11,560 bases of DNA from a virus, in UHGV virus genome UHGV-0176440; one strand, written 5' to 3'. This document shows, one piece after another, positions 8,511 through 10,554 of the stretch (its first letter is position 1; every line of letters starts with the position of its first letter). The notes beneath the pieces were generated by a model that saw only the letters and a list, made by a program, of their open reading frames with translations, made no database searches and was not told the origin of the DNA. The position numbers and the translations under genes were made by a program.

Positions 8511-8560
8511 TCATAAGCTAGTCCTTATAATTGTTAATTCTCTGTTAACTCATATATACA

Positions 8561-8589
8561 ATACTAGCAGTTTCAAAGACTAATGTCAA
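8561..8589 (-). promoter_or_regulatory. Sigma70-type promoter for the leftward operon (-35 TTGACA, 17-bp spacer, -10 TAGTAT)
   Basis: Minus-strand TTGACA (plus 8584-8589) and TAGTAT (plus 8561-8566) with a 17-bp spacer, about 45 nt upstream of the 185-aa gene ATG. Confidence 0.5.
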
Positions 8590-8596
8590 GTATTTT

Positions 8597-8626
8597 TTAA
8601 CATTTTATTAACATTTGTGGTATAAT
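8597..8626 (+). promoter_or_regulatory. Divergent rightward promoter (-35 TTAACA, 18-bp spacer, extended -10 TGgTATAAT)
   Basis: TTAACA 8597-8602; TG 8618-8619; TATAAT 8621-8626. Back-to-back with the leftward promoter, -35 boxes only 7 bp apart. Confidence 0.5.
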
Positions 8627-8807
8627 GGTCCTATGGGGAGAGTAAAATATAAAGGCGTGGCTATGAGAATGGTCACATGGTTATTGCATTGCACACAGAC
8701 CTCTTCAATCGCTCTGTAACGAGTTAAACGGTCTCTTCAGGTCAACTCATAAGGTCAGGTACTTTTTGTATCAGAATGCGATTGAGAGCGTCTTACAAGG
8801 AAAGCTA

Positions 8808-8984
8808 ATGGTAAATCTCCCTCCTGAACTGGGGTCACCTGATGTATGGGCTGGTGGAGGTGTTGGACTGCTTGCAGGCCTGCTACTTCGCTACGTCCTC
8901 GTCAGAGTGCTTGTTGTCTTTAAACTGTTCGGTCGTACATGGACGCTTGACCTTAAGGATAATGACCACACAGAACCCCGCTAA
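8808..8984 (+). CDS. Possible small membrane peptide (58 aa; MVNLPPELGSPDVWAGGGVGLLAGLLLRYVLVRVLVVFKLF...)
   Basis: ATG at 8808 with AAGGA 6 nt upstream, inside the longer track ORF 8766-8984; one strongly hydrophobic segment. Lies downstream of the rightward promoter in a locally GC-richer patch. Could instead be non-coding. Confidence 0.3.
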   Translation: MVNLPPELGSPDVWAGGGVGLLAGLLLRYVLVRVLVVFKLFGRTWTLDLKDNDHTEPR

Positions 8985-9104
8985 ACTCCCTTCAAAACCC
9001 CCTGTACGAGATGGTATAGGGGTATCTTTAGCATTTTGTGCTATCTATTAAAAAATAGCTTGACAGAACAGGAAAGCTGTATCTATCAAGTATTCACCTC
9101 TCTG

Positions 9105-9294
9105 ACAGTAATTTCTAAAAGTTCTTATTTTTCAATAAGTTGTAATTAGCCATATATAGAGAACTGACAAGTCTCTTCACAGTTAACTCTGTAACCTTAA
9201 CAGTAATTTCTAAAAATGCTTATTTTTCAATAAGTTGTAATCACCCAATATAATAGCTGTTCAGCACCTTCACAGATAACTTCAAAGGTCTTCT
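9105..9294 (+). repeat. Two tandem roughly 95-bp units, each starting with a 43-bp near-identical iteron-like repeat
   Basis: 9105-9147 and 9200-9242 (ACAGTAATTTCTAAAA..TTATTTTTCAATAAGTTGTAAT) differ at 2 positions. Each contains the 6-bp inverted repeat CTTATT-tttc-AATAAG. The unit remainders are degenerate copies (CTTCACAGTTAACT vs CTTCACAGATAACT). A degenerate third core copy is at about 11306-11327. Confidence 0.85.
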
Positions 9295-9475
9295 TAATCA
9301 ATCCACTAAGCGAGAGAAGAGCGATAACCCCAGAGAGGGAAGCTCCTTTCTTAACCGACCTCTTAAACGACCTTTACAGACCTTGTTCAAGGTAATCACA
9401 ATAGTTTCTTCCCTCGGTTTCCCGTGTTCCTCGGTTTGTCTATTGAGGGCTTTGAAATGTCCCTGTAACTTCCCC

Positions 9476-9532
9476 CCTTAGACAGGGAGAGAAAGAACAT
9501 AGTGACCCCAAGCGAAGCGCCCCTCTAAAAAG
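9476..9532 (+). repeat. Copy 1 of a roughly 50-nt GC-rich dispersed repeat (CTTAG..GGGAGAGA..GTGACC..CCCCTC..AAAAG)
   Basis: Aligns with 9928-9984 at about 70% identity; each copy sits shortly upstream of a TTGACA box (9604 and 9991). Confidence 0.6.
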
Positions 9533-9927
9533 ATTTTTTAGCTATTTTGTTTAAAAACATATCAAACGATACATTTTATTGATTTAGGTCAAAGACAAAA
9601 GCATTGACAAAATGGTATGATTGTTCACATAGCCCTCTCTTAACAGACTTTTTAAGAGCTTTTGAGAAGTTTGTTAAACAGACACTCTTTCTGGAGTGTT
9701 GTCTTTTACTTAAGAGGCTTGTTTAGGTAACTCTCAAGACATTTCTTAAGACTTCACTGTTAAGACAGAACCTACCTTCGGTTTCATGGTTCTCTTCCTC
9801 CCGTTAAACACCCCTTCCTAGCAACTTCATACTTATCTGTCAAGTACCTTTACAGACTCTATCAAAACCCTCTAAATCTGACCTGATATAGATACTGTGA
9901 AGGCATATTCTCTAGGTCTGTGTAGCT

Positions 9928-9984
9928 TACTTAGCGGGAGAGAGGGGATATGGTGACCATAGGGGAACCCCTCCTACTTAAAAG
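9928..9984 (+). repeat. Copy 2 of the roughly 50-nt GC-rich repeat; contains palindrome TATGGTGACCATA and inverted GAGGGG/CCCCTC
   Basis: See copy 1; the internal 13-bp palindrome is at 9949-9961. Confidence 0.6.
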
Positions 9985-9990
9985 AATTAT

Positions 9991-10019
9991 TTGACATCAC
10001 TGTGATGGTTGTTTAAGAT
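9991..10019 (+). promoter_or_regulatory. Candidate sigma70 promoter (-35 TTGACA, 17-bp spacer, -10 TAAGAT)
   Basis: TTGACA 9991-9996, TAAGAT 10014-10019. Spacer contains the palindrome ATCAC-T-GTGAT, a possible operator. Confidence 0.45.
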
Positions 10020-10026
10020 GCAACTG

Positions 10027-10183
10027 TACAGACACCTTCATCGGTTTCTCTACGCCTCCTTATAGTCTGGCGGGGTAGGGTATGGCTTGGTCAGGTGGGG
10101 TAAAGTATGGTTAGGTATGGGTGGATTGTCGTAGCCACGTTAAAAATCGACTTGTAAAGGGACTCTTTCGGGAGTCCTTTTTA
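10027..10183 (+). ncRNA. Candidate small RNA (about 155 nt) bounded by a promoter and a Rho-independent terminator; G-rich with repeated GGGGTA/GTATGG motifs
   Basis: Promoter at 9991-10019 and terminator at 10156-10183 with no ORF over 16 codons between; internal repeats GGGGTAGGGTATGG / GGTGGGGTAAAGTATGG / GGTATGGGTGG. Confidence 0.35.
10156..10183 (+). terminator. Rho-independent terminator (plus strand)
   Basis: GGACTC-tttcgg-GAGTCC stem (10160-10165 / 10172-10177), extendable by A-U pairs, followed by TTTTT (10178-10182). Confidence 0.6.
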
Positions 10184-10420
10184 GTTTGTATAAAATCTGT
10201 ACAGTAGCTTTTCAGAGTCTGAAAATTTTTATAAAAAAATAATCAGACCTCTTCTAAGTCTCTTCAACCAAATCTTTCAAAAATATCACAAGGCTATGTA
10301 TACCTGCTAAGTACCCGTCACACCAGCTATGTGACCCCCTTTGCAAAAAAGCCAAATATCATTGACTTTCTCTGTGAATTGCTATAAAGGCATCTATCTA
10401 GGTCTTTAACTGTATAAATA

Positions 10421-10513
10421 CACATGACAACAAACGCCCGTTAAGTGTCTATATAAAAAGGTAGCTGTAGCTATAGACAACAATTGTGATAATTGATTAA
10501 ATGTCTATAGACA
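10421..10513. promoter_or_regulatory. res-like cluster of palindromic sites upstream of the small serine recombinase gene
   Basis: TGTATaaATACA (10421-10432); TGTCTATA-18bp-TATAGACA (10446-10479, 34-bp span); perfect 12-bp palindrome TGTCTATAGACA (10502-10513). Half-sites resemble the TGTCY..TA type bound by resolvases; position matches the usual res-before-tnpR arrangement. Confidence 0.45.
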
Positions 10514-10554
10514 AACAAAACAGACCTTTGTTGACTATATAGAGAGATAAGAAC

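Follow-up and report, generated by a model that had tools for sequence, protein, structure and literature searches.

The cos site of the satellite P4 derives from that of phage P2, and SaPIbov5 and the phage-inducible chromosomal islands (PICIs) of Escherichia coli likewise carry cos sites derived from their helpers. For phages with direct terminal repeats, Chung and Hinkle reportedly found that plasmids bearing a T7 origin and a T7 concatemer junction are packaged by T7. TRAP binds triplets in the Bacillus trp leader RNA, and RNAs of the CsrB/RsmZ type act as decoys. A satellite can also carry a small RNA, as PLE does with SviR. PLE is a Vibrio cholerae satellite of the lytic myovirus ICP1 (PMC13060381, PMC9040626). 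Here we compare these systems with a 2-kb stretch (positions 8511-10554; hereafter the region) of the virus genome UHGV-0176440, of which the whole 11,560 nucleotides (the window) were analyzed. The region lies in an island that resembles a satellite of Felixounavirus phages, and it has two blocks homologous to helper DNA, a distinctive pattern of conservation, ordered promoters and terminators, a small gene, and a covarying pseudoknot. We propose, with moderate confidence, that it is a hub of cis-acting and regulatory elements, mosaic in make-up, in a satellite-like island that depends on Felixounavirus, combining a borrowed packaging signal with a helper-derived RNA, rather than decayed coding DNA.

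The island is complete, spans 11.4 kb, and is integrated in E. coli wrbA, short stretches of which flank it at both window ends (1-114 and ~11500-11560). Its two recombinase genes are:

173-1816: large serine recombinase (integrase) gene
10555-11130, plus strand: small serine recombinase gene at the right end, adjoining the region but outside it

The other genes encode a Dit-like baseplate protein, a tape-measure protein, an HNH-type protein, and several small uncharacterized proteins; the Dit-like and tape-measure genes share 90-96% nucleotide identity with those of Felixounavirus phages. Searches of Pfam, PHROGs, and NCBIfam recognized no capsid, terminase, or replication genes in the island, and in the same databases none of its open reading frames (ORFs), several of which are uncharacterized, matched a Rep-like initiator family. 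The region was found in 555 of 5426 complete E. coli genomes (~10%) and was compared among 19 relatives drawn from E. coli, E. albertii, Citrobacter, and IMG/VR contigs. Because of this gene content and the helper-derived non-coding DNA described below, a satellite of Felix-O1-type phages is the most economical reading, and the island probably belongs to an undescribed family of satellites of these virulent myoviruses. One related island (L031, Logan contig ERR4992830_102) has a tyrosine integrase in place of the large serine recombinase, and some relatives adjoin yciI or occupy other loci, so that the integration module is exchangeable.

Felixounavirus phages package their DNA with direct terminal repeats, 581 bp long in Pr103Blw (PMC8303462; see also PMC11737134). 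In the helper-type phage tootiki, convergent gene blocks enclose 1.6 kb of non-coding DNA (53449-55087); UAB_69 annotates a 618-bp terminal repeat in the equivalent region, and at least eight GenBank records have a terminus that corresponds to tootiki ~54639 or ~54070. This annotation and these record ends place the helper terminal repeat at tootiki ~54057-54660. The parts of the region that resemble helper DNA around its left boundary are:

9828-9914, plus strand: weak colinear similarity to helper DNA ~140-220 bp left of the terminal-repeat boundary (63% over 89 nt, E = 0.12), including CCTTTACAGAC
10185-10373, plus strand: junction copy, aligning with tootiki 53925-54112 across the left boundary of the terminal repeat
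10221-10237: first conserved block of the junction copy, AAAATTTTTATAAAA
10278-10287: second block, AAAAATATC
10304-10315: third block, CTGCTAAGTACC
10334-10366: fourth block, CCCCTTTGCAAAA...AAATATCATTGAC

E values for the junction copy were 3e-12 against the helper terminal region, 2.6e-11 under relaxed scoring against the whole phage, and 0.0016 in nhmmer. Within it the boundary falls at ~10307|10308 by the UAB_69 annotation, and as far right as ~10331 by the ends of other phage records; the block at the boundary reads GATGTATATCTGC|TTGGTAGCCC in the helper and CTATGTATACCTGC|TAAGTACCCG in the satellite. The copy is present in 17 of the 19 relatives. When 17 satellites and two phages were aligned, the four short blocks were common to both, and the spacers between them differed even among satellites. 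Through the junction copy, the candidates for the packaging signal of these direct-terminal-repeat phages come down to these four blocks. The similarity at 9828-9914 is suggestive only; the array module described next appears to have been inserted between it and the junction copy.

The second helper-derived block forms part of a transcription unit immediately left of the junction copy:

9991-10186, plus strand: small-RNA unit B, with a promoter at 9991-10019 (TTGACA-17-TAAGAT), an RNA spanning ~10026-10186, and a terminator at 10156-10181
10064-10123, plus strand: (GGTNN)x12 array with a 5-nt period, homologous to Ounavirinae arrays (E = 7e-14 against the whole helper genome)
10121-10152, plus strand: H-type pseudoknot, with helix 1 at 10121-10124/10135-10138, helix 2 at 10127-10131/10148-10152, and the linker GTTAAAAAT

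Unit B has the makings of a terminator-ended small RNA gene, namely a promoter and an intrinsic terminator that are both conserved. The module (9974-10190) is present in 9 of the 19 relatives; in four relatives another promoter occupies this position, and in one the terminator stem has changed in a compensatory way. That the promoter turns over while the architecture stays suggests that either the transcript or the act of transcription matters. The module is accessory rather than essential, as about half of the relatives do without it.

In the array, GGT is invariant, NN is free, and the 5-nt period is strict, with 6-15 units in satellites and 4-14 in phages. Matches to the segment 10061-10151 occur in 92 Ounavirinae genomes, where they lie in intergenic DNA without annotation 3' of DNA ligase, and in the five phages examined the array with its pseudoknot occurs in 2-5 copies per genome, always sense to the flanking genes. 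The sequence 3' of the array follows the pattern GGGTGGAT-NGTNG-TAGCCAC-GTTAAAAAT-CNACN. Both helices vary in sequence when satellite copies are compared with paralogous phage copies. In helix 1, GTGG/CCAC gives way in other copies to AAGG/CCTT or GTAG/CTAC; for helix 2, satellites have GTCG/CGAC, phages have GTAG/CTAC or GCAG/CTGC, and copies of a third class pair through an unrelated helix of 5-8 bp. In an eight-sequence alignment 94% of cells were paired and four of nine pairs had changed on both sides, a small sample that amounts to ~3-4 independent changes; none of 500 shuffles was as good, and no slid register came close.

An exact-pattern scan of IMG/VR found the element only in phage-size contigs (~88-94 kb) and in contigs of 25-55 kb, three of which are satellite-carrying contigs already in the relative set. 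The element corresponds to no Rfam family. The genes adjoining the helper arrays have no Pfam match except for one helix-turn-helix regulator, and no array-binding protein was identified. The array region was also considered as the physical end of the helper genome; this was rejected, as the record ends and the annotated terminal repeat lie 44 kb away. The relative L004 (97-3250-type) has no array and carries another helper non-coding fragment at its positions 11048-11193 (tootiki 46236-46402, E = 2e-10), which corresponds to the helper's divergent promoter region.

The region contains one other promoter-to-terminator unit of this kind:

9592-9706, plus strand: small-RNA unit A, with a promoter at 9592-9621, an RNA of ~80 nt (~9628-9706), and a terminator at 9681-9700

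The unit A promoter has TG one base 5' of the -10 element TATGAT (TAAGAT in most relatives) and is near-invariant in 18 relatives. The RNA folds as a 17-bp hairpin plus the terminator (z = -3.7); the version with a terminator is confined to 7 of 19 sequences, among them this window. The hairpin (9637-9672) has a borderline match to tootiki 3693-3728 (81% over 36 nt, E = 0.01), in the helper's divergent promoter/leader region 5' of tootiki_4 and in the sense of that gene.

The initial annotation had guessed that the region held origin, packaging, or recombination sites and regulatory RNAs. The packaging part gains support from the homology of 10185-10373 to the left junction of the helper terminal repeat, the RNA part from the two promoter-to-terminator units, one of which has a structured helper-derived element, and the recombination part from res-like palindromes directly 5' of a γδ-type resolvase gene. 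An origin is possible, given short iterons and a G-rich transcribed array.

As with P4, SaPIbov5, and the PICIs, a small integrated element without a terminase of its own carries a copy of a putative helper packaging site. Unlike in those systems, which involve cos or headful phages, the presumed helper is a virulent myovirus with direct terminal repeats of ~600 bp, and the copy, with ~66% identity in the conserved blocks, is restricted to the left junction. The likeness to PLE extends to a chromosomal island with a large serine integrase, a virulent myovirus helper, a sizeable repeat-bearing non-coding region, and a small RNA. There is, however, no sequence relationship to PLE and no RepA-type initiator in the island; the island has tail genes (tape measure and Dit-like) nearly identical to those of its helper, and its RNA copies a helper element rather than being an antisense regulator. 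The T7 plasmids offer a parallel in that a direct-terminal-repeat phage packages foreign DNA bearing its junction, and the island has a helper-like transcribed element beside its junction copy; those plasmids are artificial, whereas the neighboring element in the island is optional. What is new here is the type of signal (a direct-terminal-repeat junction), the capture of a structured helper RNA element as a separate transcription unit, and the family itself.

Only in its geometry is the array like TRAP-binding RNA. Its 6-15 GGT triplets with a period of 5 compare with the ~11 triplets at 2-3-nt spacing of TRAP targets, as expected for a ring-shaped or multimeric protein, and a separately transcribed copy could titrate a binding protein in the manner of TRAP targets or CsrB/RsmZ. 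On the other hand, the triplet is GGU, not GAG/UAG or GGA, a pseudoknot lies 3' of the array, and no MtrB-like protein was identified. A bolder proposal, which we consider rather doubtful, is that (GGUNN)n plus pseudoknot represents a novel kind of regulatory RNA in phages. On this view, a multimeric protein of phage or host origin would bind it in Felix-O1-type phages, each subunit taking up one GGU in the manner of TRAP; the separately transcribed satellite copy would be a decoy with which the island senses or sabotages its helper; and beside it would lie the first satellite-borrowed terminal-repeat junction of a virulent direct-terminal-repeat phage.

In the mechanism that we favor, helper infection would lead the island to excise via its large serine integrase, and helper enzymes would replicate it. 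The helper terminase would then recognize the borrowed junction at 10185-10373, probably together with the CTTAACAG- and CCTTCTTAAC-type repeats, and cut island DNA there, so that it is packaged into helper particles. The resolvase and its palindromes may keep the replicated copies monomeric, or may autoregulate resolvase expression. Meanwhile unit B, with its sigma70-type and presumably constitutive promoter, would transcribe the helper-type (GGUNN)n array and pseudoknot; the resulting RNA is most likely a decoy for a helper factor that binds the array element in helper transcripts, or alternatively an R-loop or primer element.

Phages of the Felix-O1 type are classics of phage typing and therapy, and the literature searched describes no satellite for them. 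If the proposal is right, their success would be subject to a hidden and widespread modifier, namely an island present in ~10% of complete E. coli genomes, which would also be an E. coli counterpart of the Vibrio PLE-ICP1 system; this possibility rests on the copied packaging junction, the tail genes, and one structured RNA. The array with its pseudoknot is conserved and multi-copy across a phage subfamily, and the satellite copy, having its own promoter and terminator, provides a handle for tests of function.

Several points weigh against the hub and its borrowed packaging signal. Satellite status is deduced from sequence; no free or packaged form was recovered, the 11-12-kb metagenome contigs being integrated or partial and without informative ends; and no satellite of Felix-O1-type phages is described in the literature searched. 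Two relatives (L021 and L022) have no detectable junction copy within the DNA fetched, and the array module is missing from about half of the set. The right boundary of the helper terminal repeat was not matched in the window or in either of two full-length relatives (L003 and L004), so that packaging would need headful measurement or concatemers; ~7.6 island lengths make up one helper genome. Two motifs are enriched on the same strand in the region and the helper terminal region, CTT[ACT]ACAG (~5-30-fold relative to the rest of the window, ~20-fold in the helper) and CTCTT[AC]A (~10-30-fold and ~6-fold, respectively), but both were chosen after the sequences had been inspected and so provide supporting evidence only. 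Lastly, the blocks 9000-9340 and 9700-9830 have no assigned role.

The strongest competing explanation is that the region is mainly a replication origin that uses the helper replisome, either through initiator-bound iterons or through transcription from 9991-10019 across the G-rich array, where a stable R-loop or G-quadruplex would prime DNA synthesis; such priming is familiar from the ColE1 and T4/T7 origins. The iterons in question are:

9343-9373, plus strand: iterons of 12-13 nt, CTTTCTTAACCGA / CCTCTTAAACGA, with 12-nt copies at 9349-9373

Their copy number varies between 2 and 3 in relatives, which would fit an origin, and they resemble the CCTTCTTAAC repeats left of the helper terminal repeat. 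The island has no recognizable replication gene of its own, the helper arrays lie among replication genes, directly 3' of DNA ligase and a sigma70-like promoter, and the G-rich strand is always the non-template strand. However, roughly half of the relatives, the full-length L004 included, have no array module; the strict 5-nt period, invariant GGT, and covarying pseudoknot point to specific recognition rather than to G-richness alone; the iterons are few and short; and there is no mapped helper origin. As the principal function of the region, an origin is therefore possible but not favored, and it is compatible with a packaging role rather than exclusive of it.

A less probable explanation, which we consider unlikely, is that the helper-like blocks were left behind passively when island and phage recombined at a hotspot for cargo and have no role of their own, the region being a tolerated spacer between modules. 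Mosaicism is indeed clear. In relatives the region receives a Dam-type methyltransferase, an AP2-type regulator, unrelated small recombinases in either orientation, and hairpin inserts, always at the same junctions, and relatives of the L004 type hold a different piece of helper non-coding DNA. Two of the junctions are marked by a duplication:

9485-9524 (copy 1) and 9936-9975 (copy 2): GC-rich duplicated motif, both copies at module junctions

The methyltransferase gene is inserted at 9468/9509 in relatives, and the array module begins just 3' of copy 2. As RNA hairpins the GC-rich duplicates were rejected (z about 0). Against mere scarring, 17 of 19 relatives retain the junction copy, in which the blocks are conserved and the spacers vary, RNA unit B retains its promoter, terminator, and base-pairing despite sequence turnover, and several blocks are more conserved than adjacent genes. 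Specifically, 9000-9260 and 9500-9620 show 93-98% identity in 17-18 relatives, above that of neighboring genes.

Short inserts of ~25-55 nt, some hairpin-forming (e.g., ctatgaggtttattcgataggggttggtacaagcccaactaaccgaatcaa), also occur at differing sites in relatives and resemble miniature mobile inserts; they comprise at least three unrelated sequences. They lie at ~10090-10140 in L003, in the leaders of L008, L013, L021, and L022, 3' of the array in L008 and L009, and near the equivalent of window 9300-9345 in L009, L011, L022, and L023. In L004 (the 97-3250-type relatives) a helix-turn-helix gene takes the place of the left half of the region.

The initial annotation had also described the region as a coding desert with divergent promoters, repeats, and hairpins with U-tracts. 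The scarcity of long ORFs was borne out: the longest has 72 aa, compared with 78 ± 18 aa in 300 shuffles of the region, and ~9% of the region is coding, the remainder of the island being densely coding. The divergent sigma70-like promoters are present at 8589-8561 (minus strand) and 8597-8626 (plus strand), both almost invariant in 17 relatives; hairpins with U-tracts stand where they had been placed, as the terminators 9681-9700 and 10156-10181, with a third at 8999-9022; and the repeats comprise a 95-bp tandem duplication, the 12-nt iterons, an 11-nt repeat (8592-8616), and the GC-rich duplicate (9485-9524 / 9936-9975). The claim that no credible ORF was present fails, because the GC-rich patch at 8800-9000 is a conserved gene for 58 aa (8808-8984, plus strand). 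This small protein gene had been missed, as had the helper origin of two blocks and the site in relatives that is prone to exchange of cargo. A pseudogene graveyard, the outcome that had been named as contrary, was tested by tblastn with the methyltransferase, AP2, and helix-turn-helix proteins of relatives, which found no remnants in the region.

By consensus the region has nine promoter-like sites (5.2 ± 2.2 in shuffles) and four terminator-like sites (1.5 ± 1.3), a modest excess in each case; conservation is stronger evidence than these counts. An Rfam covariance-model scan of the window and of helper positions 9700-11650 yielded nothing at E ≤ 1, a search for tRNAs was likewise negative, and a long structured RNA at 9255-9545 was rejected (fold z = +0.8). 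In a search for sequences antisense to the helper, 16-mers with ≤2 mismatches gave ~105 diagonals per strand, compared with ~50 in simple shuffles; no long match appeared beyond the two homologous blocks, and the signal was judged to be noise. The hexamer ACAGAC occurs seven times on the plus strand of 8695-10525, often just 3' of promoter-like sites, and 17 times on both strands of the whole window (5.8 ± 2.4 expected).

The right end of the region, between the junction copy and the small recombinase gene, contains:

10362-10388, plus strand: weak promoter-like TTGACT-15-TATAAA for the resolvase gene, read from sequence
10446-10479: res- or operator-like palindrome TGTCTATA-N18-TATAGACA, directly 5' of the resolvase gene
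10502-10513: second such palindrome, TGTCTATAGACA

Relatives diverge near the promoter-like site, at a module boundary (10361/10395). The closest solved structures to the small recombinase are gamma-delta and Tn3 resolvase and, as in the res sites of those systems, palindromic sites with inverted TGTC-type half-sites stand immediately 5' of the gene; they occur nowhere else in the window. Two palindromic sites were seen (34 bp and 12 bp), versus the classical three sub-sites. The resolvase/palindrome module is common to just four relatives, so its conservation says little. That the region is instead a DNA inversion switch or shufflon of this recombinase, or a graveyard of decayed genes, is very improbable and can be regarded as effectively excluded: PHROGs labels the recombinase 'DNA invertase' and the gene is oppositely oriented in some relatives, but no inverted repeats flank any segment (as a Hin/Gin invertible segment would have), the opposite-orientation recombinases are only 30-36% identical and are thus different genes, the closest solved relatives are resolvases, tblastn with the cargo proteins of relatives finds nothing in the region, and ORF content equals that of random sequence. 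Beyond the resolvase gene, a terminator at 11144-11189 matches tootiki 53453-53498 (83% over 46 nt, with a 24-nt exact core), a terminator located at the left edge of the helper's terminal non-coding region.

The center of the region includes its most conserved block, 9000-9260:

9060-9089, plus strand: promoter-like TTGACA-18-TATCAA, read from sequence, with 96-98% identity in 17 relatives
9105-9247, plus strand: two 95-bp tandem units, the duplicated part being 9105-9152 / 9200-9247

Each 95-bp unit consists of a palindrome, CTTATTTTTCAATAAG, a promoter-like TTTTCA-18/19-TATATA/TATAAT, and then CTTCACAG; in four of the relatives examined (L003, L005, L013, and L020) the unit is single-copy. 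Our guess is that the block serves as operator and promoter for the island's own regulators.

The left part of the region consists of divergent promoters and a small gene with its leader and terminator:

8561-8589, minus strand: promoter-like TTGACA-17-TAGTAT for the leftward operon that starts at 8510, near-invariant in 17 relatives
8597-8626, plus strand: strong sigma70-like promoter TTAACA-18-TATAAT with TG just 5' of the -10 element, matching 11 of 12 consensus positions
8633-8807, plus strand: 5' leader of the small gene, ~175 nt, containing a 46-nt motif (8696-8741)
8808-8984, plus strand: gene for a 58-aa single-pass membrane peptide (MVNLPPELGSPDVWAGGGVGLLAGLLLRYVLVRVLVVFKLFGRTWTLDLKDNDHTEPR), with the ribosome-binding site AAGGA
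8999-9022, plus strand: intrinsic terminator of the small gene (z = -2.6)

The rightward promoter overlaps the 11-nt tandem repeat at 8592-8616. The 58-aa ORF was intact in eight of nine relatives by tblastn, the ninth (L004) being without that stretch, and the gene is annotated by PGAP in L006, L007, and L009. Substitutions are conservative (V/I/L, K/R) and number 91/17/138 at codon positions 1/2/3, and one variant has an in-frame 4-codon indel. The peptide had no match in Pfam, PHROGs, NCBIfam, PADLOC, or phage genomes. Like a type I toxin-antitoxin system, the locus combines a peptide that is small and hydrophobic with a long leader (175 nt). Base-pairing between the 5' GGGGAGAG and the initial codons of the ORF is predicted but weak (fold z only -1.4), and no minus-strand promoter-like site for an antisense RNA was found between 8630 and 9060. 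Leader positions 8668-8797 (130 nt) are missing in four relatives, and in L022 the terminator hairpin has its arms swapped. The 46-nt leader motif (CAGACCTCTTCAATCGCTCTGTAACGAGTTAAACGGTCTCTTCAGG) has a second copy in relatives, 87-89% identical (e.g., L003 8440-8486), which lies 5' of the homologue of the 107-aa gene; the corresponding site has diverged in this window. A 185-aa protein encoded next to the region has 1089 homologues; among the 120 listed, identity never falls below 84%, and every one is labeled hypothetical.

A second non-coding stretch of 565 bp (5987-6551, minus strand) has features in common with the region. It has a promoter (TTGACA-17-CATAAT) followed by TATGGGAGAG, a start motif identical to that at 8633, and includes a 22-nt inverted repeat (6015-6036 / 6071-6092). 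The CTTCACAG and CTTAAGAG motifs occur there as in 8511-10554, oriented with the minus-strand genes. The 107-aa gene overlaps at its stop codon, as TAATG, with an unannotated ORF at 6475-6552 (minus strand) for a hydrophobic peptide of 25 aa (MGLIIAWTALGLFVGCWVGNTVNKN), possibly another small membrane peptide.

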